This document shows, piece after piece, positions 4,633-34,740 of a DNA stretch of 34,740 nt. This stretch comes from a virus, in IMG/VR virus record IMGVR_UViG_2915242197_000001, positions 1-34,740 of that record; one strand, written 5' to 3'. Position 1 is the stretch's first letter, and each line of letters starts with the position of its first letter. The position numbers and the translations under genes were made by a program. The notes under the pieces were generated by a model. The model ran no database searches. It had not been told where the DNA came from and saw nothing but the letters and a program-made list of their open reading frames with translations.

Positions 4633-4692
4633 TGTTCTTAGAAAAAGTTTCAAAAAGTAATCTCAACCTAATGCTCGCCAGCAAATAACGGG

Positions 4693-5597: not shown

Positions 5598-5691
5598 ACC
5601 ACTTTCCACCAGTACCACCAGCATCGCCGCCACCAGGCGGCGATATGCCGTGCGCCTGGCAGTAAACCGAGCATCAAGGAATCACCGCAAC

Positions 5692-8436
5692 ATGGCAGAC
5701 ATAAACAAACTGAAACGCCTTATCGACTTGCACGACCTGGCCGACCGCCTGGGCCTCAAGCGCGGACCAGGTGGAGAAAAGGCGCTGTACCACTCACCGC
5801 AACACCCGGACAAAAGCCCATCCCTCTCGATCTTCGTTGACCATCCCAAGAACGGGACCGGCTGGAAGGACCACAGCCAGGAAGGCGTGGGCGGCTCTTG
5901 CATCGACCTGGTTATGCTCAAGTTCGGCATGTCGGCCAGCGAGGCAATGAAGTGGTTGCACGAGTCCTACGCCATTCCATTCGACAAACCAGAACAGCCC
6001 CAGGAGCAGCGCCCTAAAAGTACCCTCGATTTCATCGCTGAAAAATGCGTCAACGGCCGGGAGAAGGCGCGCGAGTATCTGAAAGGCCGAGGTATCAGCG
6101 ATGCCGCGATCGATGCCGGCATGAAGGCCAAGACGATCGGCTACAACGACTGGACCAGCACGGCTATCAGCGAGGGTAATGTGGGGTTCGGCGGTCCTGC
6201 TGCAGCCTTCCTCGTCCGCGATCCTGATACGCTGCAAGTGGTAGGCGTCGATATGCGTTTCTTCGATCCTGAGCGCAACGGGAAAGTAAAGACCCAAAGC
6301 CACGGCACGAAGGACGGCATAGGCTGGACCGTGGACTGGCGCAAGCTGCAACGCGCCGAGCGCGTCTACATCGTAGAAAGCTCGATCAACGCCCTATCGA
6401 TCGACTCTTGCAATATCCCGAAGGCGGCCAGCTTTGCTATTCGCGGAATCGGCAATGCTGAGCTGATCGACTTCGCTTTCCTCAAGGGTAAACAGGTCAT
6501 CATTTGCATGGACAATGACGAGCCATTCCCCGATGGCCACCACCAGGCCGGCCGCCGTCCTGGCCCCGAAGCCGCGTGGGCGCTTTACGACCGCCTTACA
6601 GCCATGAACATCAGCGCCGTGATCGTTGACCAGACTGAATGGAAGAACAGCGACGGCGAGAACATCAACGACGCCAACGACGTGCTGGACGAGCTGGGCG
6701 TCGACGCGCTGCGCAAGTTCCTGGACGTGTTTGAACCGTGGCTGATCGCCGGCCAGGTTGGCGACGCCACCAGGAAGGGCAAGCCGCGCGTCTACCTGCC
6801 GGCGCATGACTTCGCCCAATACTGGAAATTCCGCACCCGCCTGGATTTCACCAGTTACATCGGCCGCATGACCAAGAACGACGAAACCGGCGAAGAAACG
6901 CCGGTTCTGCAAGACCTGGCCGGCTTCCGCATCGCATCGCTGAGCCGGGTTTCCGTCGCCAGCGCTACGGCCACCATGACCGGCGACAAGGACCAATCCC
7001 CAAGCGTCTACTTTGCCGTGACGGTGCAGACCCCGCGCCACGGCGCGCAGCTCACCCGCAAGGTGCTGCTTGACGACCAGCTCCACAACACGCAGCAATG
7101 GTCGAAGTTCGGCCCGATCTGGAAGCCGGCCGAGTTCTCGCGTATGGTCAACATCCTGGAACGTACCGCGCACATCGGCGCGCGCAACGCGGCGAACTAC
7201 GTGGGCCTGGCCTGGCGCGATGGCGAGCTGATCGTCAACGAAGGGCCGGACTGCTATTTCACCGAGGGAGAGAAGCAATGCCCCTACTACAACCTCACAT
7301 TCCCGTCAGGACCGGTCCAGGACGCGGCGAAAGTGATCCGGGCATACCAGACCACCTTTACCAACAACGCCGCCTCTACGGCCCTCGTATGGGCCTTGGG
7401 CGGCCATATGAAAACGCTGCTTGGATTCTGGCCCCACATGACCCTCCAGGCTGACAAAAGCTCCGGTAAGTCCACCCTGATTAAGCGCCTGGAGCGCACC
7501 ATCAATTTCACGATGTTTTCCGGCCAGTCGCTGCAAACCGAATTCCGCCTGTTGACCAGCATCAGCCACACCAGCCACCCGGTAGGATGGGAAGAGCTGA
7601 GCGCCCGCCGGCAAGACGTGATCGACAAGGCCGTGGGCCTCCTGCAAGAAAATTACCAATACACCGTGACCAAGCGTGGCGCGGAAATGACCGAGTACCT
7701 GTTGTCCGCGCCGGTCATGCTCGCCGGCGAGGACGTGCCGGTGCGTAGCCTCCTGGGCAAGATCGTGCGTACCACCTTGACCGGGAAAAAAGGACCGCTG
7801 ATGCCGGAAGACCTGCCGCGCTTCCCTGTGCGCCAGTGGCTGCAATTCCTGGCCGGCCTGAACAAGATGGACGTGGTAGCGAAGTACGCCGAGCTGCGCG
7901 ACCACTGCCTGGCGAAAAGCCGCGCCGGCGGCAGCGACGAGGGCGCGAAGCGTATGGCCGGCAACTACGCGGCCGTCATGCTGGCTTGGCGCTACCTGGC
8001 CGAGTTCGCCGGCATGGACTACCGCGAGGGCGACTTCGGGCAAGACCTCCTGAAAGAGATGAATTCCCACCTGTCCGAGTCCAGCGCCGACCGCTCGCCG
8101 TGGGTTTGGATCATGGAAACCGTGCTGTCTGAGATCGACGCCGGCAGCTTCAAGCACCCGTACAAGTTCGACAATATCGATGGTAGCGATGTCCTGTTGA
8201 TCCGTACCGGCCACATCATGGACCACATCGCGCACTCAAGCCATTTGCGCGACAAGTGGAACAGCTTGCCAGTCAAGACGCCGGCCGTGTTCAAACGCCA
8301 GCTTGAGCAAGCCGAGGTGATCGTCGGCGGCGAGGTGGAGCGCACCATTTTGACCAGGCGCGTAGGCCACCTGACGGCGCTGTCCCTGGAAGTCCTGGGC
8401 AAGTTCGGCCTGTCCGTATCGATTCGCAAAGACTGA
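5692..8436 (+). CDS. Replicative primase-helicase fusion (DnaG-like N-terminus, Toprim, C-terminal Walker-A NTPase)
   Basis: The ATG at 5692 follows AAGGA. The N-terminus resembles the DnaG zinc-binding region (HSPQHPDKSPSLSIF ... GGSCIDLVM). A Toprim-like acidic motif is present (YIVESSINALS ... VIICMDNDEPFPDG). Walker A is ADKSSGKST. Confidence 0.8.
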   Translation: MADINKLKRLIDLHDLADRLGLKRGPGGEKALYHSPQHPDKSPSLSIFVDHPKNGTGWKDHSQEGVGGSCIDLVMLKFGMSASEAMKWLHESYAIPFDKPEQPQEQRPKSTLDFIAEKCVNGREKAREYLKGRGISDAAIDAGMKAKTIGYNDWTSTAISEGNVGFGGPAAAFLVRDPDTLQVVGVDMRFFDPERNGKVKTQSHGTKDGIGWTVDWRKLQRAERVYIVESSINALSIDSCNIPKAASFAIRGIGNAELIDFAFLKGKQVIICMDNDEPFPDGHHQAGRRPGPEAAWALYDRLTAMNISAVIVDQTEWKNSDGENINDANDVLDELGVDALRKFLDVFEPWLIAGQVGDATRKGKPRVYLPAHDFAQYWKFRTRLDFTSYIGRMTKNDETGEETPVLQDLAGFRIASLSRVSVASATATMTGDKDQSPSVYFAVTVQTPRHGAQLTRKVLLDDQLHNTQQWSKFGPIWKPAEFSRMVNILERTAHIGARNAANYVGLAWRDGELIVNEGPDCYFTEGEKQCPYYNLTFPSGPVQDAAKVIRAYQTTFTNNAASTALVWALGGHMKTLLGFWPHMTLQADKSSGKSTLIKRLERTINFTMFSGQSLQTEFRLLTSISHTSHPVGWEELSARRQDVIDKAVGLLQENYQYTVTKRGAEMTEYLLSAPVMLAGEDVPVRSLLGKIVRTTLTGKKGPLMPEDLPRFPVRQWLQFLAGLNKMDVVAKYAELRDHCLAKSRAGGSDEGAKRMAGNYAAVMLAWRYLAEFAGMDYREGDFGQDLLKEMNSHLSESSADRSPWVWIMETVLSEIDAGSFKHPYKFDNIDGSDVLLIRTGHIMDHIAHSSHLRDKWNSLPVKTPAVFKRQLEQAEVIVGGEVERTILTRRVGHLTALSLEVLGKFGLSVSIRKD

Positions 8437-9129: not shown

Positions 9130-9423
9130 CTATCGGTTTGCTTCGCGTTCTTCGGCCGCGACGAACCGCGACACCGCCAGGGCGAAGCCGGCCGCGCGGC
9201 TCAAGCCCAGCGCCTTCGCCTTCTTGTCCAGCTCGGCCAGCAGCTTCGCATCGATCGTCAGGCTGATAGGCTTCTTGCGGCCACCGTCCACCACTGGCGC
9301 CGTAGTGCGCGCATGCGCGCCGGCGTCAGGAGCGGCGGCGATCTTCGCTTGTACGTCCGCTTCGGTCACGCCTGGTTTCAAGGTAATGCCGCCGCCTGGT
9401 TTTGCCGTCATGTTTGATTTCAT
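9130..9423 (-). CDS. Ribbon-helix-helix DNA-binding protein, ParG-like centromere-binding/autoregulator candidate
   Basis: The C-terminal KPISLTIDAKLLAELDKKAKALGLSRAAGFALAVSRFV fits an RHH, and the N-terminal tail looks long and flexible. It lies immediately downstream of parA. Confidence 0.65.
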   Translation of the reverse strand: MKSNMTAKPGGGITLKPGVTEADVQAKIAAAPDAGAHARTTAPVVDGGRKKPISLTIDAKLLAELDKKAKALGLSRAAGFALAVSRFVAAEEREANR

Positions 9424-9446
9424 ATTAATACCTCTCTAATACTGTG

Positions 9447-9474
9447 TTGATCTTATCTTGATATCAAGGTGATG
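9447..9474. repeat. TTGAT array locus B with palindrome TTGATATCAA
   Basis: GAT occurs at 9449, 9460 and 9471 (11-bp phase). The palindrome is at 9458-9467 and is followed by ggTGATG. Confidence 0.7.
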
Positions 9475-9479
9475 TTAGG

Positions 9480-10238
9480 TTAATCGACGGCGACCACATC
9501 ACCCGGTTTCAGCTTGTCACTGGCAACGATGCGGCCGGCGGGGTGTTCCTCGTCAGGCACCAGGCGAACGTAAGCCGGCACATGCTCGCCGTTCGCTGTT
9601 GCCACCGCTTGCTCCACCAGCAGATCGATTTCTAACTTCGCCTCTGGCGGTGCGCCCTTGTATTCCGCGATGTAGCGGCCCTGGGCGCTGGCGTGAGAAA
9701 TCGCCTTGCGATCGCCCAGGCGGGCCGTGATGACCGGGAAACCAGATTCGTACACCGTCGCTATCGCGGCGTAGTTATCGCCCTCCTGGCCGGCCGGATC
9801 GGCTTTGTTCAGGAACGCAATGACCTTGAAATCTTTCACGCCCAGCATTTCACGCAGCAGCTTGACGGTGTTCTCAAAGGCCCAAACCTCATACGAGCGG
9901 GGAGCAAAAGGAAACAGTACAACATCGCAGAGCGTCAGCGCCGCACGCATGGCCCCGTTGTCATTCGCCGCCACGTCGATAACGACATCATCGAACTGGC
10001 CGGCTTTCAACAGGACTTGCGCACGCAGCGACGGACCATCCGGCAGCGGCGTAGCCTCGATGCCTGGCAAGCCGGCTTCAATGCGCGCGGTCAGGGACAA
10101 GAACAGGTGTTTCTGTTCATCGTCGCCATCGACGCCCCAGGCGCGGCGGCCCATGCGAGCCAGGCCGGTAATCAGTTGCGTGGACGTGGTGGACTTGCCA
10201 GCGCCGCCTTTTTTGTTCACTACCGCGTAAATTGCCAT
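9480..10238 (-). CDS. parA: ParA-family partition ATPase (deviant Walker A)
   Basis: It starts MAIYAVVNKKGGAGKSTT, carrying the KGGxGKS/T deviant Walker A. At 252 aa it is in the size range of type Ib ParA/ParF proteins. Confidence 0.9.
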   Translation of the reverse strand: MAIYAVVNKKGGAGKSTTSTQLITGLARMGRRAWGVDGDDEQKHLFLSLTARIEAGLPGIEATPLPDGPSLRAQVLLKAGQFDDVVIDVAANDNGAMRAALTLCDVVLFPFAPRSYEVWAFENTVKLLREMLGVKDFKVIAFLNKADPAGQEGDNYAAIATVYESGFPVITARLGDRKAISHASAQGRYIAEYKGAPPEAKLEIDLLVEQAVATANGEHVPAYVRLVPDEEHPAGRIVASDKLKPGDVVAVD

Positions 10239-10272
10239 GATATTTATTTCCTATTAAAAATATAGCTGTTCG

Positions 10273-10301
10273 ATTGTATGGTAATACTTATTTGATATCA
10301 A
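10273..10301 (-). promoter_or_regulatory. Sigma70-type promoter for parA: TTGATA-N17-TACAAT (minus strand), -35 embedded in palindrome TTGATATCAA
   Basis: On the minus strand, TTGATA (10301-10296) is followed by a 17-nt spacer and TACAAT (10278-10273). The palindrome is at 10292-10301 and is followed by ctTGATG (GAT at 10294 and 10305, 11 bp apart). Confidence 0.65.
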
Positions 10302-10321
10302 CTTGATGGTGTAACGCCGTG

Positions 10322-10976: not shown

Positions 10977-11009
10977 TGTTTTCCCTTAAAAGTTCATGCG
11001 ACAGACTCA

Positions 11010-11038
11010 ATAGTATCTTAATCTCATGTTGATATCAA
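11010..11038 (-). promoter_or_regulatory. Sigma70-type promoter TTGATA-N17-TACTAT (minus strand), -35 inside palindrome TTGATATCAA
   Basis: On the minus strand, TTGATA (11038-11033) is followed by a 17-nt spacer and TACTAT (11015-11010). Confidence 0.6.
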
Positions 11039-11101
11039 CATGATGTATAAATAATTGTGGTTTGATTGCATCTTGATGTTAATACCAACTTGATATATAC
11101 G
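11029..11101. repeat. TTGAT array locus D (palindrome plus phased TGATG/TTGATT/TTGATG/TTGATA); possible rightward promoter TTGATG-N17-TATACG
   Basis: GAT occurs at 11031, 11042, 11064 and 11075, all on an 11-bp lattice, plus 11092 off-lattice. TTGATG (11073-11078) and TATACG (11096-11101) are separated by 17 nt and face the repeat-rich non-coding region. Confidence 0.6.
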
Positions 11102-23797: not shown

Positions 23798-23882
23798 TTC
23801 CTGAATTTCCTATAAATGGTGAGGGAACGCCCGCAGCCAAAGGCCGCGATAGCGCATACCTGCCATTCTCGGAAATGTTTTG

Positions 23883-23893
23883 TGTCAGCACAC
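23883..23893. promoter_or_regulatory. Motif TGTCAGCACAC upstream of V, shared with FI upstream region (30418-30428)
   Basis: An identical 11-mer lies in two late-operon leaders. Its CAGCACA core is also the right arm of the P/O dyad. Confidence 0.4.
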
Positions 23894-23969
23894 CACCGAG
23901 CGAGTGTGGCCGCAGCGGGTACAAACGCATGTTGCTGACTCGCGCGCACGCGAGCGGCACCATGCAGAC

Positions 23970-24710
23970 ATGGACACTAACGAACTCTACCGGCTGATTT
24001 TGAACCTTGTACGCAAGGGCACGATTCTGGCCGTCGATCACGACAAAGAGGTATGCCGCGTGCAAAGCGGCGACCTGGAAACCAACTGGATCAACTGGCT
24101 TGCGCTGGCCGCCGGCGAAACGACCGACTGGAACCCGCCGACCGTGGGCGAACTGGTCTTGCTGTTCTGCCCTGGCGGCGATCCCACCGAGGGCGTAGCG
24201 CTGCGCGGCATCAACACCGACGAGGTGAAAGCGCCGAGCCACAAGCCGACCACGCATACCCGGCGCTATCCCGATGGCGCGGTCATTGAATACGACCACG
24301 AAGCGCACGCGCTCACCGTGACCATGCCGGAAGGTGGCACCGCTGTTTTCACCGTTCCCGCTTCGGTCACGATCAACACGAAGGCCGCGACTATCAACGC
24401 CAGCGACAGCGCGACGGTCAACACGAAGGCCGCGACCATCAACGCCGACGACAGCGCAACGATCAAATCGAAAAAGGTAACGATAGACGCACCTGACACC
24501 CTCTGCACAGGAAACCTGACCGTTCAAAAAACGCTGGCCTACCTGGGCGGTATGACCGGCAGCGGCAGCGCGCCAGGATCTGGCGGCAAGGCGGCCAAGA
24601 TCAACGGCGGCATCGATGCCACCGACGACATTACGGCGAAAGGTATCAGCCTGGTCAAGCACGTCCACCAGGAGCAGGGTGACGGTAAAGACGTGGGGCC
24701 GGCGAAATGA
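23970..24710 (+). CDS. V: Baseplate spike/assembly protein V (P2 gpV family)
   Basis: It contains MDTNELYRLILNLVRKGTILAVDHDK..CRVQSGDLETNWI.W. The ATG at 23970 is preferred over the track's TTG at 23880. Confidence 0.9.
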   Translation: MDTNELYRLILNLVRKGTILAVDHDKEVCRVQSGDLETNWINWLALAAGETTDWNPPTVGELVLLFCPGGDPTEGVALRGINTDEVKAPSHKPTTHTRRYPDGAVIEYDHEAHALTVTMPEGGTAVFTVPASVTINTKAATINASDSATVNTKAATINADDSATIKSKKVTIDAPDTLCTGNLTVQKTLAYLGGMTGSGSAPGSGGKAAKINGGIDATDDITAKGISLVKHVHQEQGDGKDVGPAK

Positions 24711-25063
24711 TCGGCATGGACGCAAAAACCGGCCGCAGCCTGCAAGGCCTGGCGCACCTGTACCAGTCAATCGGAAAAGTCCTCACGACGCCCGAAGGCT
24801 CTTGCGTCGCGCGCCGTACTTTCGGATCAAAGATTTTTTCACTGATCGACGCGCCGAACAATCCGGCCACGCGCGTGCGGCTGTATGCCGCCGCCGCCAC
24901 GGCGTTGATGAAGTGGGAACCGCGCCTCAAGCTGACGCGCGTGTCCATTTCCGGCGCGCCGAGCATGGACGGCAAACAATCCCTGGACATCGAAGGCACC
25001 ACCCGGATTTCCGGCGAACTGGTCAACACGTCCGTTTCTCTCTCCGCTGAAAGGACTGTATGA
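24707..25063 (+). CDS. W: Baseplate wedge protein W (gp25-like)
   Basis: 118 aa containing ...LTTP.GS.V.RR.FGS....LID.P.N.... An ATGA overlap links it to V. Confidence 0.85.
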   Translation: MIGMDAKTGRSLQGLAHLYQSIGKVLTTPEGSCVARRTFGSKIFSLIDAPNNPATRVRLYAAAATALMKWEPRLKLTRVSISGAPSMDGKQSLDIEGTTRISGELVNTSVSLSAERTV

Positions 25064-25968
25064 GCACGCCGATTGATTTAACGCTGCTGGCCGCGCCCGC
25101 CGTTGTCGAAGTCATCGACTATGAAACCCTGTACGCCAGCCGCAAGGCGCGCATGATTGCGCTGTGGCCGGCCGACCAGCAAGCCGAGGTGGCCGCCACC
25201 CTGGCGCTGGAGTCGGAACCGCTGGCCCGCAGCTTGCAGGAGAACACCTTTATCGAAATGGTGCTGCGCCAGCGCATCAACGACGCCGCGCGCGCCGTGA
25301 TGCTCGCCTATGCGCAAGGCACCGACCTGGACCAGCTCGCCGCCGGCAAGAACCTGCAACGCCAGGTGTTGACGCCCGCCGACGAAGAGAACGGCATTCC
25401 CGCCGTGATGGAAAGCGATAGCGACTTGCGCTATCGAATCCAGATCGCACCGGAAAGCCTGTCTGTGGCCGGCCCCGAAGGCGCTTACGAGTCGCTGGCG
25501 CGCAACGCGGACGCGCGGGTACTCGATGCGTCCGTTGACAGCCCTACGCCTGGTCAAGTCCGCGTCACGATCCTGGCGCGCGACGGCGCGGGCGAAGCCA
25601 GCGGCGAGCTGACGGCGGCCGTCGCCGCCGCGCTGAACAGCAAGACCGCGCGCCCCCTGACGGATGAAGTTATTGTGGAGAGCGCCGAGATTCTCGGCTA
25701 CATGGTGCGCGGCATCCTGTACACCTTTCCCGGCCCGGATTCCAGCGTGGTGCTGGCGACGGCGCGCAAGAACCTGGACACCTACATACAGACCTGTCAC
25801 CGCCTGGGCCGCCGCGCCACGCGCGCCGGCATCGAAGCGGCCCTGATGGTCCCAGGGATGGAAAACGTGGTGCTGGAGCTGCCACAGGCCGACATCGTGA
25901 CGACGAAGCGGCAAGCGCCTAACTGCACCCTGGTTGACCTGGCTTACGGCGGCGTCTATGGCGCTTAA
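25060..25968 (+). CDS. J: Baseplate protein J
   Basis: 302 aa, identified by its position after W and by Baseplate_J-like blocks. Confidence 0.85.
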   Translation: MSTPIDLTLLAAPAVVEVIDYETLYASRKARMIALWPADQQAEVAATLALESEPLARSLQENTFIEMVLRQRINDAARAVMLAYAQGTDLDQLAAGKNLQRQVLTPADEENGIPAVMESDSDLRYRIQIAPESLSVAGPEGAYESLARNADARVLDASVDSPTPGQVRVTILARDGAGEASGELTAAVAAALNSKTARPLTDEVIVESAEILGYMVRGILYTFPGPDSSVVLATARKNLDTYIQTCHRLGRRATRAGIEAALMVPGMENVVLELPQADIVTTKRQAPNCTLVDLAYGGVYGA

Positions 25969-26494
25969 CCTGCTGCCACCGAACGCCACGCGGCTAGAGC
26001 GCGTCCTGGCCGAAGTCTGCGGCGTCATCGGCGATTTGCCGGTGACGATCCGCGAGATTATGGACCCGGACAAATGCCCCGTAGCGCTGCTGCCGTGGCT
26101 GGCCTGGGCCGTCCATGTGGACGCCTGGGACGATGCCTGGAGCGAAGCGCAAAAGCGCGCCGTCATCAAATCGGCCTACCAGGTCCATGTACAGAAAGGC
26201 ACCGTGGCGTCCGTCGAATCCGCCCTGGCGGCCCTGGGCGTGACTGCTGATGTCGTTGAGTGGTGGCAGCAATCGCCGCGCGGCGTGCCTTACACCTTCC
26301 GCCTCGACGTGGACACGGAAAACGTGGGCATGACGGAAGTTTTCGCGCAGTCGATCGAACGCCAGGTGGCGGCCGTCAAGCCAGCCCGTTCACATTTCAC
26401 CGTCCAGTTTATCGCCAAGACCCGCCCCGCAATCAGCGTAGGCGTGGCGGTACAGGACGTAATCATTACCAGCGTCTACCCAAAACAGAAATGA
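25958..26494 (+). CDS. I: Tail/baseplate protein I
   Basis: MALNLLPPNATRLERVLAEV...LLPWLAWAVHVDAWDD.W is characteristic of gpI. Confidence 0.85.
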   Translation: MALNLLPPNATRLERVLAEVCGVIGDLPVTIREIMDPDKCPVALLPWLAWAVHVDAWDDAWSEAQKRAVIKSAYQVHVQKGTVASVESALAALGVTADVVEWWQQSPRGVPYTFRLDVDTENVGMTEVFAQSIERQVAAVKPARSHFTVQFIAKTRPAISVGVAVQDVIITSVYPKQK

Positions 26495-27192
26495 GCCAAA
26501 CCTACTATTCCCTAATAACCGCCGCCGGCCTGGCCGAGCTGGCGGACGCGCAAGTAGCGCGCGAAGTTGTCCCGTTCACCCATATCGCTATCGGGGACGG
26601 CAACGGCCATGCAACCGCCCCGGACGAGAACACCGCCGGCCTGGTAAACAAGGTCTACCAGGTGGAAATCAGCAGCATCAAGAAAGACCCGACGCACCCC
26701 ACCTGGTTCATTTTTGAAGCGGCCGTACCGGAAGACGTGGGCGGCTGGACCGCGCGCGAGCTGGCCCTGATCGGTGGCCGCGTACCAGGCAAGGTCATGG
26801 CCGTCAGCAACTACCCGGCGGTGGAGAAGGTGGCGGCCGCCGACGGCAGCGCCCGCGCAATGATCGTGCGTTTTTACATGGAATACGTCAACGGGGCCGT
26901 TATCAGCCTCTCGGTCAATCCCCAGGCCTACGCCACGGCGCAATCGGTGTTGCAGTCGATCGCGGACCACATGGCGGCGCTGGACCCTCACCCGCAGTAT
27001 TTGACCAAGGCCGAGGCCGACGCCTTCTACGACACGATCGGCCTGGCCGCTGACGCGATCCAGCAGGACGCGGCCCGCCTGTCCAGTCACATCGCGGCGG
27101 CCGATCCGCACCCGCAGTACGTCAACGGCGCCAGGGCGGCTGCAGCAAATGCCAACCGCTGGGCCGAAGAATTTTTTAACGCAGCAGGATAG
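26491..27192 (+). CDS. Short tail-fibre protein carrying only the gpH-type N-terminal baseplate-anchor domain
   Basis: MSQTYYSLITAAGLAELADAQ...IAIGDGNG...PDENTAGL...EVGGWTARELALIG parallels the N-terminus of P2 gpH as I recall it. It is only 233 aa long. The C-terminus has two DPHPQY motifs. Confidence 0.75.
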   Translation: MSQTYYSLITAAGLAELADAQVAREVVPFTHIAIGDGNGHATAPDENTAGLVNKVYQVEISSIKKDPTHPTWFIFEAAVPEDVGGWTARELALIGGRVPGKVMAVSNYPAVEKVAAADGSARAMIVRFYMEYVNGAVISLSVNPQAYATAQSVLQSIADHMAALDPHPQYLTKAEADAFYDTIGLAADAIQQDAARLSSHIAAADPHPQYVNGARAAAANANRWAEEFFNAAG

Positions 27193-27207
27193 AAAGGAAA
27201 CACATCA

Positions 27208-27531
27208 ATGGCAGTGAAAAGCGGCGATTTGGGCGGCGGCACCCTGGAAGCCGGGAAAGAAAAGATCGGCTATGCGTGCGCCGCGCCGGCCGTGGCGGCA
27301 ACGATCACCGTCTCGTTTTGCAACAAGTCCCTGGGGCCGGTGAAAGTCCGCCTGGCGCTCGGCCCTGGCGCGGACAGCAAGGCGGCCGGAACGCGGTTCT
27401 TGGAATTCGATTCCGAGGTAGGAAAGACACTGGAGCGCACCGGCATCGCCGTTTCTGCGGGAACCAACGTGTTCGTGCAATGCGACCAGGCAAACACAGA
27501 TTACGCCATCTACGGCTATGAAAAACAGTAA
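27208..27531 (+). CDS. Hypothetical small protein (107 aa) in fibre module
   Basis: A good SD (AAAGGA) is present and the composition is beta-rich. Confidence 0.6.
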   Translation: MAVKSGDLGGGTLEAGKEKIGYACAAPAVAATITVSFCNKSLGPVKVRLALGPGADSKAAGTRFLEFDSEVGKTLERTGIAVSAGTNVFVQCDQANTDYAIYGYEKQ

Positions 27532-27541
27532 GGAGTAAGCA

Positions 27542-29236
27542 ATGGGACGTAATGTAAGCGCTGCATCTAGCGCCAGTTCTTCGCAGCCGGTCTACTACAC
27601 GACCGTCACCGTAGGCGAGGACGTACAGCAAGGGCAAATCGCCGTGCTGGGCGAGGACAATCTCGCCTACTACGGCGCGGACCCAGCCGTGCCGGCAAAT
27701 TCGGTTCGGCCAATCGTCAACCTGACGCCGATCATCAACGCTATCTTGATGCCGGCACCGGCGCGGCCGACCGATACGAACGGCATCAACAGCACCAACC
27801 AGTCCAGCTCCTGGGGGGGCTTGAACTGTATCGCCGGCGCGGCCCTCTCAAATGGCAACTACGTAGTCGCGTGGCAGCTCAACAGCGGCAATTTCCCGGT
27901 ACAGTTCGCCATCTTCAACAACGCCGGCCAGCAGCAGGGCGCGGTGGTTACTGTGGACGGTGCAGCCGCAACTGGTACCACGGCTTTCTGTGTTTCCATC
28001 GCGGCACTGACCGGCGGTGGCTTCGCCCTCGCCTTCGGTCGAACCGTGGCCCCCTGGGTGCAATACGGCGTCTACGACAACAACGGGGCCGTGGTGAAAG
28101 CGCTTACAGCCGTCAACGCCGCCATTACCGGAGTGGGCGGTGGTGGCACGCAAATTTACGCGCTCGCCTTGAGCAACGGCGGATTCGCCTTGGCATACAT
28201 GAATACGTCTGTTCCAGTGACGGCCTACGCGGTGTATGACGCCACCGGCACCGTAGTCAAAGCCAATACGGCCTTGGCCGGCGGCGGCAACGGCTTTGTG
28301 CAAGGCGCTGCTTTCTCCGCTGCCCAGGGAGGCGGCTTTGTCATCGCTTACAGCACGCAAACCAATGGCACGATGGTGCAGAAATTCAAGAATGACGGAA
28401 CCGCCGTAGCGGCAGCAGCGGCCACCGGCGGCGGCAACAGCAACTACAGCGCAGTAACGCCGAACGGTAATGCTGGCGGCTTCGCCGTCGCATCGCTGGT
28501 ATCAGCAAATTTGACGGTCACGCTCTACAACACGAACGGCATCCAAGCAGCCGCCCCGGCAAGTGCGGGAGCCGTATCCACCGGCGCGACCTACCCGCGT
28601 ATCGTCGGCCTGGCGAATGGCGATGTTGCCGTTGCCATGATGGGCAGCGGCACCAACATTACGCTTGCCTTCCACAGCGGCACCACTGGCAAAGTCTTAA
28701 AGTCCTACACCTACGCCCAAATTCCGCTTACCTACAACAGCAACGCCGACGTGTCTTTGTACGCGACCAAGGCGGGCGGCCTGTCCCTGATCGGCATGCT
28801 TTCCGGTGGCTCGCTGCAATGTGCTTTCGACGCAAACTACAACCTGGCGGCCCCCTATGTGGCGCTGCCTACGCCCTATGTCCCATATGGGAACACGCCG
28901 CCTGTGTTCTTCCCACTGGTGAACCCGGTAAAGGCAAGCGCCGACCTCGCCGTGCTGGCGGGGCAGACCAACACCGGCGGCCTGTTTGTCGGCCAGATCA
29001 TGCCCTACATGCCTCGATTTATCCCTCTCGGCGTCTACACGAATAACGCGGCCAAGGGACAAACAGCCCAGGTCCAGTACACCGGATCGATAAGCCTGGC
29101 CGTTGGCTTCCAGGCTCCTTACAACGTCGACGCGCAATCGCAAACGCCGCCAGGTCAGCGTATGAGCATCGTCGGCAATAGCGTAATCATGAACGGTATG
29201 CAGTCTTCGTCGCGCGTGCGCCGAAACATCAACTAA
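27542..29236 (+). CDS. Putative receptor-binding protein with seven ~48-aa propeller-like repeats
   Basis: An SD (AAGGAG) precedes the start. Seven repeat cores were read: LSNGNYVVAWQ, LTGGGFALAFG, LSNGGFALAYM, AQGGGFVIAYS, NAGGFAVASL, LANGDVAVAMM and KAGGLSLIGM. Each is followed by ...(Y/F).(Y/F/L).(N/D).(N/D/T)G.... A C-terminal domain of about 120 aa follows the repeats. Confidence 0.7.
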   Translation: MGRNVSAASSASSSQPVYYTTVTVGEDVQQGQIAVLGEDNLAYYGADPAVPANSVRPIVNLTPIINAILMPAPARPTDTNGINSTNQSSSWGGLNCIAGAALSNGNYVVAWQLNSGNFPVQFAIFNNAGQQQGAVVTVDGAAATGTTAFCVSIAALTGGGFALAFGRTVAPWVQYGVYDNNGAVVKALTAVNAAITGVGGGGTQIYALALSNGGFALAYMNTSVPVTAYAVYDATGTVVKANTALAGGGNGFVQGAAFSAAQGGGFVIAYSTQTNGTMVQKFKNDGTAVAAAAATGGGNSNYSAVTPNGNAGGFAVASLVSANLTVTLYNTNGIQAAAPASAGAVSTGATYPRIVGLANGDVAVAMMGSGTNITLAFHSGTTGKVLKSYTYAQIPLTYNSNADVSLYATKAGGLSLIGMLSGGSLQCAFDANYNLAAPYVALPTPYVPYGNTPPVFFPLVNPVKASADLAVLAGQTNTGGLFVGQIMPYMPRFIPLGVYTNNAAKGQTAQVQYTGSISLAVGFQAPYNVDAQSQTPPGQRMSIVGNSVIMNGMQSSSRVRRNIN

Positions 29237-29248
29237 GAAAGGAAGGAA

Positions 29249-29500
29249 ATGGCATCCGGTATTCTCGGAATTCTTAACGGCGTGGGGAGTCTCTCCTACA
29301 CCCCGACAGTAAATTCGCAAGTCCTATTAACCGCCTCTGGCAGTAGCGTTCCCGCAATCAGCATCAATGGCGTCAGCGGCTTGATAGCCTCGCAAGGAGT
29401 GACGTTGAAGTTGTTTGTCGGAGCAAATCAAACCCTGACAGTCGGTACCGTAGCAAGTACTACCGTACTCGTTTCTTGCCTGGAGGAAGAAGCACAATGA
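29249..29500 (+). CDS. Hypothetical small Ser/Thr/Val-rich protein (83 aa)
   Basis: An SD (AAGGAAGGA) precedes the start. A lower-GC stretch begins here. Confidence 0.55.
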   Translation: MASGILGILNGVGSLSYTPTVNSQVLLTASGSSVPAISINGVSGLIASQGVTLKLFVGANQTLTVGTVASTTVLVSCLEEEAQ

Positions 29501-29952
29501 AAATCGTTTTTGTTACTGATGGCCGCGTAGTCGGCACAGCCTTGCCTACCTCCCCGCTTGTGGTTGTTGAATGCCCTTCTCAAGACGTGGTGAAAATTTT
29601 AGTCGCGACCGAAACCCAGGTGGAAGAAGGCTGGACCCATGATGTAGTTGATGGCGTCGATGTATTCAGCAAACCTACGCCAAAACCGCCGACTGTTGGC
29701 CCGAATGAATTCCATTTTCTGTGGACAATTCAAGAGCAGATGGTTATTGAAGAACTTCGCGCCGATGACGTGGGCGTGAATCTGTTCATGCGCCGGCTGG
29801 ACGATCCGCGTACTACCGAGGTAGTACTGTCGGCGTCCGCTGTTCAAGCGGCGATCGCACACACCATTGACGCTTTGGTAGCGGCCGGCGTCATCGCACC
29901 AGAAAACCGCGACAAGCGGCTGGCGGCAATTATCAGCGGGAAGCCGGTATGA
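29497..29952 (+). CDS. Hypothetical protein (151 aa), possible fibre assembly/chaperone by position
   Basis: An ATGA overlap links it to the previous ORF. GC is visibly lower. I do not recognise any gpG-like motif. Confidence 0.55.
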   Translation: MKIVFVTDGRVVGTALPTSPLVVVECPSQDVVKILVATETQVEEGWTHDVVDGVDVFSKPTPKPPTVGPNEFHFLWTIQEQMVIEELRADDVGVNLFMRRLDDPRTTEVVLSASAVQAAIAHTIDALVAAGVIAPENRDKRLAAIISGKPV

Positions 29953-30284
29953 GCGCGGCGGTAATCGGGAAGCTGTTAGCTGAACTGGCCGAATCTCTGC
30001 GCGAGCGCGCGGCCAAGTTCGCTATCTTCCTGGTTTGTCAGCTCGCGCATGCCCTGGCGTCCCTGTGGATGCTTGCCGCGATCGTCACAGGAAGCGACCG
30101 CTACTGGCGGATTGCGCGCGGCTACGATCGCGTAGGCAACGCCGCCACCGGCGGCCTGGACACTGAAACGGTAAGCAGCCGCGCAAGCCGAGCCAGGAAA
30201 GAGGGGCGGCGCTGGGGCTGCATCTTATGTCGCATCCTTGACCGAATCGACCCCGACCATTGCAGCAAATCCGAAGGCGTATAA
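29949..30284 (+). CDS. Hypothetical membrane protein (111 aa)
   Basis: It has a hydrophobic helix pair (FAIFLVCQLAHALASLWMLAAIV) and a Cys-containing basic C-terminus. It occupies the P2 Z/fun-equivalent position just before FI. Confidence 0.55.
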   Translation: MSAAVIGKLLAELAESLRERAAKFAIFLVCQLAHALASLWMLAAIVTGSDRYWRIARGYDRVGNAATGGLDTETVSSRASRARKEGRRWGCILCRILDRIDPDHCSKSEGV

Positions 30285-30316
30285 CGCGCCGCGGCCTCCG
30301 TAAATCCCTCCCTTTT

Positions 30317-30343
30317 CGGCCGGTTTCTGACAAAAACCGGCCG
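30317..30343 (+). terminator. Stem-loop after fibre/cargo module (possible terminator)
   Basis: CGGCCGGTTT-CTGACAA-AAACCGGCCG. There is no clear U-tract. Confidence 0.35.
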
Positions 30344-30350
30344 AGTCATT

Positions 30351-30369
30351 TGTACCCGCTTCCACCACA
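30351..30369. promoter_or_regulatory. TGT-N13-ACA element upstream of FI (candidate late promoter activator site)
   Basis: TGTACCCGCTTCCACCACA has the same TGT/ACA spacing as the P/O dyad. It lies about 128 bp upstream of the FI ATG. Confidence 0.4.
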
Positions 30370-30487
30370 TTCGCAAGTTGATGCGCTTCCCGCACGCGCG
30401 CGGCAAGCTGTCGCCACTGTCAGCACACACAGCACCACGACCGCACCCGCGATCGCGGTTTATCACCACCACCAGGAGTAATTTTTT

Positions 30488-31666
30488 ATGGCAAACGACG
30501 ACTACCACCACGGTATCCGCGTCACCGAAGTCAACCAGGGTACGCGCCCTATCCGCACCGTATCGTCCTCGATCGTGGGCATGGTCTGCACCGCCGAGGA
30601 TGCAGACCCGGCAGTATTCCCGCTGGATACGCCCGTACTGCTGACCAACGTTGTAACCGCGCTGGGCAGCGCTGGCACCAAAGGCACCTTGCGCGCGGCG
30701 CTGGTAGCCATCGGCGCGCAGACCAAGCCGCTCACTGTGGTTGTGCGCGTGGCCGAAGGCGCGACGCCGGCGGAAACCGCCGCCAACGTCATCGGCACCG
30801 TAACGCCCCAGGGCAAATATACGGGCCTCAAGGCGCTGCTTGGCGCGCAAGGCCGCCTGAAGGTCAAGCCGCGCATCATCGGCGCGCCTTGGCTCGATAC
30901 GCAAGCCGTGGCGGCCGAAGTTGTAGCGACCGCGCAGAAGCTGCGCGCCTTCTCCTACGTTTCGGCCAATGGCTGCGCCACCAAGGAAGACGCGGCCGCC
31001 TACCGCGCGCTGTTCGCCGCCCGCGAAGTCATGGTCATTTGGCCTGAGTTCCTGGCGCTGGACACCGTAACCAAGAAAGAAACGGTAGTCCCGGCCGTGG
31101 CCTACGCCCTGGGCCTGCGCGCCAAGATCGACAACGATACTGGCTGGCATAAGACACTTTCTAACGTCGCGGTCAACGGCGTCACCGGCATTTCCAAAGA
31201 CGTGTTTTGGGACTTGCAAGACCCGAACACCGACGCGGGCTACCTGAACAGCAAGGAAATCACGACCCTGATTTGCGTGGATGGCTTCCGCTTCTGGGGT
31301 AGCCGCACCTGTTCCGATGATCCGCTGTTCGCCTTCGAGAACTACACCCGCACGGCGCAAATCCTGGCCGACACGATGGCCGAGGCGCATATGTGGGCCG
31401 TGGACAAGGATATGTACGCATCCCTGGTCAAAGACATCCTGAACGGCATCAACGCCAAGCTGGCGGCGCTGAAAGCCGGCGGCTACATCATCGACGGTAG
31501 CGCCTGGTATGACGACACGCTCAACAGTGTTGACGACCTCAAGGCCGGCAAGCTGCGCATCTCCTACGACTACACCCCGGTGCCGCCGCTGGAAGATTTG
31601 GAGCTGATCCAGCGCATTACGGATACCTACCTGATGGACTTCGCCGCCAGCATCGCGGCGTCCTGA
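30488..31666 (+). CDS. FI: Contractile tail sheath protein (P2 gpFI family)
   Basis: 392 aa, starting MANDDYHHGIRVTEVNQGTRPI... Confidence 0.9.
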   Translation: MANDDYHHGIRVTEVNQGTRPIRTVSSSIVGMVCTAEDADPAVFPLDTPVLLTNVVTALGSAGTKGTLRAALVAIGAQTKPLTVVVRVAEGATPAETAANVIGTVTPQGKYTGLKALLGAQGRLKVKPRIIGAPWLDTQAVAAEVVATAQKLRAFSYVSANGCATKEDAAAYRALFAAREVMVIWPEFLALDTVTKKETVVPAVAYALGLRAKIDNDTGWHKTLSNVAVNGVTGISKDVFWDLQDPNTDAGYLNSKEITTLICVDGFRFWGSRTCSDDPLFAFENYTRTAQILADTMAEAHMWAVDKDMYASLVKDILNGINAKLAALKAGGYIIDGSAWYDDTLNSVDDLKAGKLRISYDYTPVPPLEDLELIQRITDTYLMDFAASIAAS

Positions 31667-32707: not shown

Positions 32708-34740
32708 ATGTCAAACGAACTGAAATTGCGCGTGCTGTTCGATATGGTGGACCGCGTAACGCGGCCGCTGCGCAATGTCCTGGAAGGGAACAAGGGCGCG
32801 GCTAAAGCACTGAGCGAAACCCGCAACCGGCTCAAAGAGCTGGGAAAGACGCAACAGGACGTGGGCGCGTTCCGCGAGCTGCGCACCGGATTGCGCGACA
32901 CCGACGCCCAGCTCGCCGCCGCGCAGCAGCGCGTTAGAACCCTGGCCGGCGAGATGGGGCGATCCGGCCCGCCGACCAGGGCGATGGCGCGGGATTTTGA
33001 AAGCGCGAAGCGGGCTGCAGCAGAATTGACCGCCACCCAGGCGCGGCAGCAAAACGAGCTGCGCGAGCTGCGCGGCCGCCTGGCCGGCGCGGGCATCGAC
33101 ACCCGCAGCCTGGCGCAGCACGAACGCAACTTGCGCGGCGAGATCGAATCAACCACGGCGGCGATGCGCCAGCAGCAAGCCCGCCTGGCTGAGCTGGCCG
33201 CGCGCGAGCGGCGCGTAGCCGAGGCGCGTAGCCGCATGGAACGCACCCAGGCAACCGCCGGCCGCCTGGCCGGTAGCGGCGCTGGCGCGCTGGCCGCCGG
33301 CGCTGTCACCGGCGCGGCATTGAAAGCACCTGTCACCGAGTACGCCAAGGCCGAGGATTCCGCTACCCAGCTCAAGGTTGCCTTGATGCGCGCCGGCGCG
33401 GTAGTTCCTCCCGAATTCCAGAAAATCAACGACCTGGCGATGAAGCTGGGCGACAAGCTGCCAGGCACCACCGCCGACTTCCAAGACATGATGACCATGT
33501 TGAGTCGCCAGGGCATCGGTGCGCAAACCATCCTGGGCGGCGTGGGAGAGGCCACCGCCTACCTGGGCGTCCAGCTCAAGAAAGCGCCGGCAGAGGCGGC
33601 CGAGTTCGCGGCGAAATTGCAGGACGCCACGCGCTCCACCGACAAGGAAATGATGGGCCTGATGGACGTTATCCAAAAGACGTTCTATCTCGGCGTGGAT
33701 GACAGCAACATGCTGCAAGGCTTCGCCAAGCTGTCGCCGGCAATGGACACGCTCAAGGTAAAAGGCCTGGAAGGGGCGAAAGCCCTGGCACCGTTGCTGG
33801 TCATGGCAGACCAGGCGGGCATGGCCGGCGAATCCGCCGGCAACGCATACCGCAAGATTTTCCAGATGTCGATGGACAAAGCGAAGATCGACAAGGCAAA
33901 CAAGCAGCTCGGCCCAGGTAACAAGCTGGAATTCACGAACGGTAAAGGCGAGTTCGGCGGCTTCGATCAAATGTTCAAGCAGTTCAAAAAGCTTGAAGGC
34001 CTCACCACGCAAAAGCGCCTGGGCGTGCTGAAAGAGGTATTCGGGGACGATGCGGAAACGCTGCAAGTCGTCGCGCTACTGATCGAAAAGGGCGCGAATG
34101 GCTACGGCGAAGTGCAAGCCAAGATGAACGCCCAGGCGTCCTTGCAGCAGCGCGTAAATACCCAGCTCGGCACCCTTAAGAATCTGTGGGAAGCTGCCGG
34201 CGGCACATTTACAAACGGCCTGGTAGCGATGGGCGATTCTATCTCGCCAGAACTGAAAGCCACCACCGAATGGCTGGGCGATATGGCGCAAAGCGTGGGA
34301 CAGTGGGCGCGCGAAAATCCGAAGCTGGCCGGCGGCCTGATGAAGACTGCCGCCGCCCTGGCCCTGGTGCTGACCGTGGGCGGCGGCCTCATGCTCACCG
34401 TGGCGTCCATTCTCGGCCCTATGGCGGTCCTGCGGTTCAGCATGACCACGCTGGGAATGCAGGGCGGGTTGCTGGCAAACGTGTTCCGCATGGCCGCCTC
34501 ACCGCTTCGCCTGGTTGGCTCGGCCATCATGTTCATCGGCCGCGCGCTACTGATGAACCCTATAGGCCTGACGATTACCGCTATTGGCCTGGCCGCGTAT
34601 GGCATCTACAAGTATTGGGGACCGATCAAAGAATTTTTCGGCGGCATTTGGGACGGCGTGAAGGCCGCCTTTGCCGGCGGTATTAGCGGCATCGGCGCGC
34701 TTATCGTGAACTGGTCCCCGCTCGGCCTGTTCTACCAGGG
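32708..34740 (+). CDS. T: Tail tape measure protein, N-terminal part (runs off the window end and continues at 128..1007)
   Basis: The ATG at 32708 immediately follows the E' stop. The frame is open to the end of the window. It has a coiled N-terminus and hydrophobic segments near 34330-34600. It is absent from the ORF track because no stop codon occurs before the end. Confidence 0.9.
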   Translation, partial: MSNELKLRVLFDMVDRVTRPLRNVLEGNKGAAKALSETRNRLKELGKTQQDVGAFRELRTGLRDTDAQLAAAQQRVRTLAGEMGRSGPPTRAMARDFESAKRAAAELTATQARQQNELRELRGRLAGAGIDTRSLAQHERNLRGEIESTTAAMRQQQARLAELAARERRVAEARSRMERTQATAGRLAGSGAGALAAGAVTGAALKAPVTEYAKAEDSATQLKVALMRAGAVVPPEFQKINDLAMKLGDKLPGTTADFQDMMTMLSRQGIGAQTILGGVGEATAYLGVQLKKAPAEAAEFAAKLQDATRSTDKEMMGLMDVIQKTFYLGVDDSNMLQGFAKLSPAMDTLKVKGLEGAKALAPLLVMADQAGMAGESAGNAYRKIFQMSMDKAKIDKANKQLGPGNKLEFTNGKGEFGGFDQMFKQFKKLEGLTTQKRLGVLKEVFGDDAETLQVVALLIEKGANGYGEVQAKMNAQASLQQRVNTQLGTLKNLWEAAGGTFTNGLVAMGDSISPELKATTEWLGDMAQSVGQWARENPKLAGGLMKTAAALALVLTVGGGLMLTVASILGPMAVLRFSMTTLGMQGGLLANVFRMAASPLRLVGSAIMFIGRALLMNPIGLTITAIGLAAYGIYKYWGPIKEFFGGIWDGVKAAFAGGISGIGALIVNWSPLGLFYQ
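34614..34740. repeat. Terminal overlap, identical to 1..127
   Basis: See the first feature. Confidence 0.95.

Follow-up and report, generated by a model that had tools for sequence, protein, structure and literature searches.

A gpH-type anchor, a jelly-roll protein and a predicted propeller protein as a probable modular host-recognition device in a P2-like phage

In P2-type tails, the N-terminal domain of gpH attaches the fibre to the baseplate. The H protein of P2 comprises 669 amino acids (aa) and is followed by the 175-aa G, and the H of Ralstonia phage RSY1 comprises 554 aa. The long tail fibre of T4 (gp34-gp35-gp36-gp37) is built from several products end to end, with small joint proteins and dedicated chaperones, and its distal tip is a fibrous trimer. 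Systems in which a separate protein attaches to an anchor through a docking peptide have been established experimentally in podoviruses of Klebsiella and Escherichia coli and also for some myoviruses (PMC13352976). There is precedent for propeller receptor-binding proteins as well, among them Gp45 of Staphylococcus phage phi11, the K1F endosialidase, and predicted propeller depolymerases of Klebsiella (pro)phages; a literature search returned no propeller receptor-binding protein on a P2-type gpH anchor and no paper that links P2-like fibres with propellers. Here, a stretch of 34,740 nucleotides (nt), positions 1 to 34,740 of the IMG/VR virus record IMGVR_UViG_2915242197_000001 (hereafter the window), is examined with a focus on six genes at 26491-30284 that encode a 233-aa gpH-type anchor, a 107-aa jelly-roll protein, a 564-aa propeller protein, and three smaller proteins. 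We consider it likely that this region encodes a modular, multi-protein host-recognition device that replaces the single gpH fibre; confidence is lower for the stoichiometry of the proposed joint.

An initial reading of the DNA letters by a model, referred to here as the first-pass annotation, had placed a split tail fibre at 26491-29236, and its three open reading frames (ORFs) were recovered at those positions, all on the + strand (Table 1). The start ATG of the anchor gene overlaps the stop of gpI, and the domain PF12571 (Phage_tail_fib, N-terminal) begins at residue 1 and spans aa 1-147 (nt 26491-26931; E = 5.7e-36; 124 bits vs a cut-off of 23). When compared to PHROG tail-fibre profiles of 570-1,060 positions, the match of the anchor was confined to their first ~160-190 positions. 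The 86 residues after PF12571 had no further Pfam match above the gathering threshold and no T4gp10-like domain in Pfam or PHROG, and the protein ends at 233 aa without a shaft or C-terminal receptor-binding region in the same polypeptide. Two DPHPQY motifs, at aa 165 and aa 205, are present as the first-pass annotation had reported, and the motif also occurs in the anchors of loci L001, L101, L104, L108, L109, and L110 (L numbers denote the loci that were compared). Judged by its sequence and by the lengths of the P2 and RSY1 proteins, the anchor corresponds to a truncated gpH that consists of the N-terminal baseplate-binding domain and a short linker with the two DPHPQY motifs, in agreement with the split that had been proposed.

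The gene for the 564-aa protein is preceded by an AAGGAG ribosome-binding site, and its product can be divided into an N-terminal domain, seven repeats, and a C-terminal region. The repeats (aa 96-149, 150-202, 203-251, 252-302, 303-352, 353-403, and 404-443) gave a mean pairwise local-alignment score of 39.0, as compared to 24.9 +/- 1.2 in 300 composition-matched shuffles (z = 11.7), which confirms the seven repeats of the first-pass annotation. Blades 1-5 show a clear core motif, L-S/T-N/G-G-G-F-A/V-L/V-A-W/F/Y, and also carry a second one, aromatic-x-aromatic-x-N-x-G; in blade 6 the core motif is degenerate and the second motif weaker, and in blade 7 both are degenerate. An AlphaFold2 (AF2) model built on an alignment of full-length relatives (predicted local distance difference test, pLDDT, 77.5; predicted template-modelling score, pTM, 0.78) is all-beta, with three strands at aa 18-46, seven groups of four strands at aa 97-441, and eight strands at aa 455-551; the blade count is based on the DSSP string and on Foldseek matches. 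All of the 50 top-listed Foldseek matches in the PDB were beta-propeller domains or propeller-containing proteins. The best template-modelling (TM) scores, 0.64-0.68, were those of the seven-bladed PLL/PHL lectins, and further matches included GH145 enzymes, the CV39L lectin, and six-bladed fucose lectins, at 10-14% identity. In BFVD, the top matches were phage proteins of comparable size that are uncharacterised (E = 1e-13 to 1e-10). The 564-aa protein is predicted from this model to carry a seven-bladed beta-propeller, which upholds the earlier suggestion that the repeats form one.

The C-terminal region of ~120 aa that had been seen after the repeats (aa 444-564) was also recovered, and its eight predicted strands form a putative beta-sandwich. 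This region is conserved across the 564-aa family, and its ending is like the ..GN....L.G(I/V/M) ending of the non-propeller distal proteins of L101 and L110. The 564-aa protein had no family match in Pfam, PHROG, NCBIfam, or PDB sequences, and the named propeller repeat families (WD40, Kelch, NHL, FG-GAP, YVTN, BNR/Asp-box, and others) had no Pfam match at E <= 1. Further, a profile search of PDB sequences with the 564-aa family returned marginal WD40/NHL matches only (E = 0.07-0.12).

A propeller at the end of a P2-type fibre had been called unusual in the first-pass annotation. This stands for deposited phage genomes, since a tblastn search with the 564-aa protein returned no match in 50,697 deposited phage records, but it does not stand for metagenomes. 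A word-indexed search of 5.8 billion proteins recovered about a dozen full-length relatives (31-57% identity), and an exhaustive profile search of 1.84 billion representatives returned 9,126 matches, 443 of them at E <= 1e-30. Size classes were read from 144 inspected top-ranked representatives (50%-identity clusters). Of these, 46 have a phage-type length of about 520-700 aa and align end to end, and 98 form a larger class, mostly giants of 1,000-7,900 aa. The giants match profile positions ~80-380 only, in as many as 21 stretches of one protein (summed E down to 1e-176), and have in common with the phage protein a blade motif of the L-x-(D/N)-G-G-F-V-V-x-W type. Tens of GGxGxD motifs, up to 87, are found in many of the giants, as compared to none in the 564-aa phage protein; two scanned giants, P0058 and P0115, had partial RTX-family matches, and P0056 carries a type IX secretion system (T9SS) sorting domain. 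The propeller blades are, as far as their sequences tell, homologous to repeated modules of giant secreted proteins, many of them of RTX type, and the comparison in the first-pass annotation with the propellers of large secreted adhesins was correct at the level of sequence homology. The traits of the giant proteins themselves (giant size, RTX nonapeptides, and a secretion signal) were not found in the 564-aa protein.

The propeller region contains no Glu, one His, and seven Asp, and among its charged residues only K186 and D430 are conserved at 75% or more in 14 homologues. In the same 14 homologues, no conserved set of the catalytic acidic or basic residues of propeller-type depolymerases or sialidases was found in the propeller. 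The N-domain is the most conserved part of the protein and contains the strongly conserved charged residues E26, D39, D47, and R56 as well as conserved Y43 and P48. Because the propeller lacks Glu and has a single His and because the conserved charges are located in the N-domain, the conservation pattern points to a binding module with a conserved attachment domain rather than to an enzyme. The alternative is that the propeller acts as a tailspike-type depolymerase and breaks down capsule or O-antigen as a glycosidase, a sialidase-like enzyme, or a lyase. Foldseek matches to GH145 enzymes and to putative neuraminidases or pseudaminidase would fit a depolymerase, as would the report that n-bladed propellers make up 18% of the predicted depolymerases in Klebsiella prophages (PMC12491483). 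However, in addition to the composition and conservation of charged residues described above, no Pfam BNR, sialidase, or glycoside hydrolase (GH) match was obtained even at E <= 1, lectins equal or beat enzymes by TM-score, and the homologues found by sequence are not enzymes but modules repeated in giant secreted proteins that are largely of RTX type. We regard a depolymerase as improbable.

The 107-aa protein was modelled by AF2 as an eight-stranded all-beta sandwich (pLDDT 84.5). The PHROG family phrog_11338, "tail fiber protein", was matched by 10 of 17 members of this jelly-roll family (best E = 4.9e-12). Family members are 102-113 aa in size across loci, with a tandem duplicate in L003, and homologues are encoded directly 3' of the tail-fibre genes in the cyanophages P-SSM2 and S-CAM3 and in phage AcaML1. 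A survey with a sub-alignment of the family recovered four viral loci, and S-SM1, S-PM2, and Syn9, which are phages with published virion proteomes, were absent from the jelly-roll tblastn matches. The 107-aa protein is proposed as a candidate joint, or adaptor, between the anchor and the distal protein. The first-pass annotation had assigned it an adaptor role, and the wider comparison favours that assignment: the protein is always flanked by an anchor whose C-terminal tail is conserved and by a distal protein whose N-terminus is conserved, and the anchor tail covaries with the jelly-roll subtype.

The joint would be composed of the aromatic C-terminal tail of the anchor, a jelly-roll protein of ~105 aa, and a distal protein that starts with MGR(F/Y/N/S)(I/V/L)(S/T). 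Anchor tails of the forms ..YFMGQL, ..YFVGQM, ..YFYGQL, ..FFVGQI, and ..AFFYAQM were observed, with WAE.FF.AAG in the subgroup to which the window belongs; tails of the window subtype include WAERFFYMAG, WAEQFFSAAGF, WAERFFYAAGI, and RATRFFHANF. In a table of 17 loci from at least six backbones, an aromatic anchor tail was present in 15 and a distal start of the form M-[GAS]-[RF] in 16, as scored with permissive patterns that were defined post hoc, after the data had been seen. Among loci that were read after the table was made, L108, L109, L110, and AcaML1 fit at both ends, and L103 has a jelly-roll protein and a distal protein starting with MAR, its anchor being outside the view. This brings the total with a jelly-roll protein to 22 loci, in 21 of which the anchor tail could be read. 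Moreover, the jelly-roll subtype "VSFCNK" pairs with tails of the WAE.FF.AAG type (five loci), and the subtype "VRLAICPSGY" pairs with tails of the YFMGQL type. Loci that lack the jelly-roll gene (L009 and L070, the latter from Duganella sp. OV510) have other ends, with a fibre that terminates in ..DWRLA/V and a propeller protein that starts with M.L(S/T)DF. The same P2 anchor and jelly-roll protein are also combined with different distal proteins, namely a 375-aa non-propeller protein in L108 and a 510-aa protein in L110. Because subtypes covary, because the ends differ in jelly-roll-less loci, and because exchange occurs at MGR, the anchor tail, the jelly-roll protein, and the distal N-terminus are likely to be physically coupled.

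In a different arrangement, a very short fibre would end in the 107-aa jelly-roll protein, which would act as its tip, or receptor-binding knob, and the 564-aa protein would be a second, side-mounted accessory adhesin or would lie off the fibre axis. C1q/TNF-like and CBM-like sandwiches often form fibre tips, and the 107-aa model has weak Foldseek matches to such folds. Additionally, the protein that follows the jelly-roll in cyanophages has just 91-108 aa, so that a large distal protein is not required, and jelly-roll-less loci have a fibre with its own C-terminal domain upstream of the propeller protein, which suggests that the propeller protein can serve as an add-on. However, the jelly-roll family is strongly conserved over unrelated hosts, from Betaproteobacteria to Cyanobacteria and Acidithiobacillus, which is typical of a structural connector and atypical of a receptor-binding tip. 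Its subtype also covaries with the anchor tail, and the variable partner is the protein that starts with MGR. A jelly-roll tip is considered unlikely.

Homologues of the 564-aa protein retain a six-gene, sometimes five-gene, order on different tails. P2-like carriers are L001 (a Sterolibacterium metagenome-assembled genome), L104, and L011 (partial); L109 is a short contig with an anchor fragment that contains DPHPQY and the same tail, no backbone being visible. The cassette is located on a Mu-like baseplate with Gp45/46/47/48 in L107 and on a backbone without Pfam-recognisable tail genes in L003 and L105, and it is also carried by L006, L010, L030, L031, and L106. Anchors of five or more tail types precede this gene order, and the terminal motifs at the junctions are conserved. 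Comparison of these sequences marks the cassette as mobile, with a distal gene that is exchanged exactly at the MGR start. The joint was also found in S-CAM3, in the marine podovirus-like contig L017, in AcaML1 gp50-gp54, and in the T4-like cyanophage P-SSM2, where a 1,326-aa fibre ending in ..EFFVGQI is followed by the 106-aa gp302 and by a 91-aa protein starting with MGRFVG. A broader proposal, which we advance only tentatively, is that the joint may be a widespread and previously undescribed universal connector that plugs interchangeable distal proteins into P2-like, Mu-like, AcaML1-like, T4-like cyanophage, and marine podovirus-like tails; the propeller would then be only one of several cartridges, taken over from giant RTX-type adhesins or passed on to them.

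Several features near the compared cassettes are recorded here in their own right. Downstream of the cyanophage joint are paralogous unannotated proteins of 329-356 aa that are extremely rich in Cys and Gly (CGCCCG, CCCGG, CCYQACYC), a composition that is unusual for a virion region. In L003 (14158-17686) and L105 (10162-11677), which have the non-P2 backbone, a giant protein of >1,100-1,590 aa with InPase, DarA_N, and LPD3 domains is encoded a few kilobases downstream and resembles the Dar anti-restriction proteins of P1. The prophage of Duganella sp. OV510 (L070 / L025 4558-6177) encodes a 391-aa fibre ending in ..DWRLA, a propeller protein of ~534 aa starting with MQLSDFV, and a 142-aa chaperone-like protein, followed by lysis genes; since this strain is a cultured isolate, it is a possible experimental system.

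The first-pass annotation had ended the unit with the propeller gene at 29236, but three more co-oriented, tightly packed genes follow before a terminator-like hairpin at 30315-30345. The genes at 26491-30284 overlap or are separated by spacers of 10-16 nt, all on one strand. The hairpin is the sole strong terminator-like one; it closes the operon that runs from V, W, J, and I through the anchor gene to the cassette, and the sheath gene follows it. In P2, the corresponding site downstream of G likewise carries a terminator. Neither a promoter-like site nor a terminator was found within the late operon upstream of 30315. Because the genes overlap or are spaced by 10-16 nt and only one terminator-like hairpin is present, the six genes belong to a single late operon. 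This arrangement bears on the possibility that the 564-aa protein and the small genes are non-virion cargo, that is, a lysogenic-conversion or "moron" module encoding a secreted adhesin-like protein and its helpers where P2 has fun(Z). Between G and FI, P2 does have a gene for conversion that is not essential, the propeller has homologues in modules of bacterial secreted proteins, and the 83- and 151-aa genes deviate in G+C content at third codon positions (GC3). However, the genes are part of the late operon, in which the hairpin is preceded by neither a promoter-like site nor a terminator, and the same order, with the junction motifs described above, recurs after anchors of several tail types. 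Moreover, the phage would then have no receptor-binding domain, because its anchor ends after 233 aa, and the 564-aa protein is without RTX repeats. Conversion cargo is, in our view, very improbable.

The GC3 values are 0.52 for the 83-aa gene and 0.52-0.55 for the 83- and 151-aa pair, as compared to 0.72-0.82 in neighbouring tail genes, and this island (29249-29952) suggests that the two genes may have been acquired recently from a separate lower-GC source. Homologues of the 83-aa protein are encoded directly after the propeller gene in L001, L003, L006, L009, L010, L030, L031, L104-L107, and L109, and the protein accompanies most propeller proteins, not non-propeller distal proteins. It had no family match in Pfam, PHROG, or NCBIfam and is a candidate assembly factor or small structural partner. 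The 83- and 107-aa proteins both start with MA(S/T)G(I/L)(L/V)G and end similarly, in ..LEE; the idea that the 83-aa protein is a short paralogue of the jelly-roll protein was rejected on an hhalign probability of 0.6% with seven residues aligned.

The absence of a recognisable gpG-like chaperone, as claimed by the first-pass annotation, is true by sequence, yet the 151-aa gene occupies the gpG position. None of the 83-, 151-, and 111-aa downstream proteins matched gpG/Caudo_TAP, and a relation of the 151-aa protein to gpG as a divergent member was not supported (hhalign probability of 0.5% against P2 gpG), its family of 26 members having no Pfam, PHROG, NCBIfam, or PDB match. These 26 homologues include Duganella and Massilia proteins, and the protein follows propeller and non-propeller distal proteins alike (L070, L098, L108, L110, and AcaML1 gp53). 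By position only, the 151-aa protein is the best chaperone candidate. The 111-aa protein has one transmembrane helix (hydropathy peak at aa 24-46), matches phrog_34710 (E = 2.1e-27), and contains a conserved C-terminal cluster, RRWGC-x-LC-x2-LD-x4-5-HC. Homologues of ~100-115 aa are found in the same position in L001, L003, L009, L030, L107, L109, L110, and AcaML1 (gp54), and the gene is the last of the cassette in many unrelated phages, whichever distal protein is present.

Taken together, these observations allow a mechanism to be proposed. The anchor, presumably trimeric like gpH-type fibres, would plug into the J/I wedge, and its C-terminal tails would form the joint together with the jelly-roll protein and with the 564-aa protein, which would contribute its N-terminal peptides and N-domains, as suggested by synteny and covariation, which likewise point to the 564-aa protein as the distal receptor-binding protein. 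The propeller, perhaps together with the C-terminal sandwich, would bind a surface component of the betaproteobacterial host, probably a glycan, or else a protein, and it most likely binds its ligand rather than degrades it, because no catalytic-type residues are conserved. Relatives are found in Sterolibacterium, Duganella, Massilia, and other Oxalobacteraceae. The sandwich may add to binding or serve as a handle for an assembly factor, and the 151-aa protein, perhaps with the 83-aa protein, may assume the folding and assembly role of gpG. The six-gene cassette would have been grafted onto P2-like, Mu-like, and other contractile tails, with the N-terminal part of the anchor alone changing with the tail type, and host range could be changed by exchanging the gene that begins at the MGR codon.

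Besides the post hoc definition of the terminal motifs, several points weigh against this proposal. Among the anchor tails compared, that of the window, FFNAAG, diverges most. No structural neighbour of the 107-aa model is significant, as its Foldseek matches (jelly-rolls including viral ones, C1q heads, and CBM-type sandwiches) are weak throughout, with a best E of 1.7e-3, and "trimeric knob" is an analogy only. The 151-aa protein has no similarity to any known chaperone that could be detected in its sequence. Some Foldseek matches of the 564-aa protein are glycoside hydrolases and sialidase-like enzymes, enzymatic activity nevertheless being unlikely. Finally, the functional assignments, the placement of the cassette proteins in the virion, and the geometry and stoichiometry of the joint are computational predictions.

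The first and last 127 bases of the window are identical (1-127 = 34614-34740), the overlap signature of an assembly that closes into a circle, and the P2-like phage genome in the window thus measures ~34,613 bp. The tape-measure gene spans the circle junction, its C-terminal part being the ORF at 45-1007; the gene also contains a 218-nt direct repeat (15-232 vs 243-460, 87% identical). In the gpV spike gene, a 45-nt tandem duplication in perfect register (24369-24458; 89% identical) encodes the repeated TINTKAATINA(S/D)DSA. The early region encodes a small serine recombinase/DNA invertase (3167-3976, + strand; phrog_125, E = 1.7e-68), a CI-like repressor (3973-4653, - strand), a 928-aa primase (5650-8436, + strand; phrog_5629), and a ParA-like partition ATPase (9480-10238, - strand). 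No tyrosine integrase was seen among the ORFs scanned in the window, and the phage may integrate via the serine recombinase or persist as a plasmid prophage. The ParA-like gene is flanked by short intergenic repeats at 9414-9474, 10270-10308, and 11007-11045, whose copies contain TTGATATCAA-type palindromes and which may serve as partition or operator sites, and the intergenic segment 12919-13055 contains three copies of CTACGCAC..GTGCGTAG-type units that are iteron- or operator-like. An inverted repeat of 39 nt (23887-23925 / 30349-30387; 77% complementary, with an 11-nt exact core) brackets the operon from V to the 111-aa gene. Fibre switching by the invertase-like recombinase was considered and rejected, as the cassette is all on one strand and the bracketing repeat is 1 of 138 such pairs; its position is probably due to chance.

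Table 1. Positions of the late tail genes, the six-gene cassette and related features (window coordinates unless a locus is named)
Feature	Position	Strand	Basis or remark
V	23880-24710	+	late tail operon
W	24707-25063	+	late tail operon
J	25060-25968	+	late tail operon
I	25934-26494	+	late tail operon
233-aa gpH-type anchor gene	26491-27192	+	ORF scan
First DPHPQY	26983-27000 (aa 165-170)	+	anchor sequence
Second DPHPQY	27103-27120 (aa 205-210)	+	anchor sequence
Anchor C-terminal tail WAEEFFNAAG	27160-27189	+	proposed plug docking into joint
107-aa jelly-roll gene	27208-27531	+	ORF scan
564-aa propeller gene	27542-29236	+	ORF scan
N-terminal domain, starts MGRNVS	27542-27826 (aa 1-95)	+	proposed docking peptide and attachment domain
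Seven-bladed beta-propeller, predicted	27827-28870 (aa 96-443)	+	seven repeats, 40-54 aa each
C-terminal beta-sandwich, predicted	28871-29236 (aa 444-564)	+	ends ..GNSV.M.G.Q....RR.IN
83-aa gene	29249-29500	+	ORF scan
151-aa gene	29497-29952	+	ORF scan
111-aa gene	29949-30284	+	ORF scan
Terminator-like hairpin, 12-bp stem, 7 G-C pairs	30315-30345	+	
Sheath gene	30488-31666	+	3' of terminator-like hairpin
111-aa homologues	L111 6092-6424 (AcaML1 gp54); L107 7325-7672; L109 3125-3412; L110 2370-2684		
Cys/Gly-rich proteins	L095 6604-7674 and 8403-9470 (P-SSM2 gp304, gp306); L102 5708-6697 (S-CAM3 gp158)		

Host range is set by receptor-binding proteins, and engineering them requires attachment points that are defined and portable. 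Most sockets validated to date are those of podoviruses that infect Klebsiella and E. coli. Should the joint function as proposed, it would represent a natural plug-and-socket common to phages of Betaproteobacteria, Acidithiobacillus, and marine cyanobacteria that could be used on contractile tails and on tailocins. In addition, the sequence link between the phage module and the propellers of giant proteins, which are unnamed in Pfam and NCBIfam, provides a testable hypothesis of glycan or surface binding for both, and the finding names and gives a putative role to several "hypothetical" genes that adjoin cyanophage tail-fibre genes.

When compared to the gpH/gpG system of P2, the locus has in common the operon position (V-W-J-I-H), the PF12571 domain, a small gene at the gpG position, and a terminator before the sheath gene. 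It differs in that the H protein has about a third of the P2 length (233 vs 669 aa), in that the shaft and tip appear to be replaced by two separate proteins, and in that no Caudo_TAP-type chaperone is detectable. The multi-product build is reminiscent of the T4 long tail fibre, with which no sequence similarity was found and whose tip is not a propeller. The branched systems of Klebsiella phages KP32, K11, and KP34 and of coliphages K1-5, G7C, and CBA120 are likewise modular and swappable (PMC13352976), and the short conserved N-terminal docking peptide on a separate receptor-binding protein in the KP32/K1-5/G7C type resembles, by analogy and not by homology, the M-[GAS]-[RF] start described here. 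In those systems, however, docking takes place on a T4gp10-like branching domain inside the primary receptor-binding protein, whereas here a separate jelly-roll protein of ~105 aa is found at the junction, the anchor is without a receptor-binding part, and the backbone is of the contractile P2 type; no sequence relationship was found.

Among propeller proteins, phi11 Gp45, K1F, and the Klebsiella propellers are alike in the use of a propeller as the host-recognition module, but their blade families differ, with no detectable sequence similarity, and several of them are enzymes. PLL/PHL (Photorhabdus) and CV39L (Chromobacterium) are sugar-binding, non-enzymatic seven-bladed propellers that resemble the model in structure (TM-score 0.56-0.68, E ~1e-8 to 1e-6). 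Unlike the 564-aa protein, they are lectins without extra N- or C-terminal domains and are not phage proteins, and identity is 10-14%. With respect to the giant secreted proteins, the phage protein differs in having a single propeller, no GGxGxD motif, and phage-specific N- and C-terminal domains. AcaML1 gp50-gp54, from a deposited phage genome, has the same layout, with an anchor ending in ..AFFYAQM, a 103-aa jelly-roll protein, a 470-aa protein starting with MGRYLS, a 150-aa chaperone-like protein, and a 110-aa membrane protein, followed by the sheath gene; its gp51 is annotated as a "phage tail fiber-like protein" and the rest of gp50-gp54 as hypothetical. Its anchor is not of the gpH type, however, and no homology between its distal protein and the 564-aa protein is detectable. 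Relative to the known propeller and docking-peptide systems, the locus differs in its separate jelly-roll protein, a gpH-type anchor without a receptor-binding part, a propeller of the giant-protein family, and a set of accessory genes of its own.

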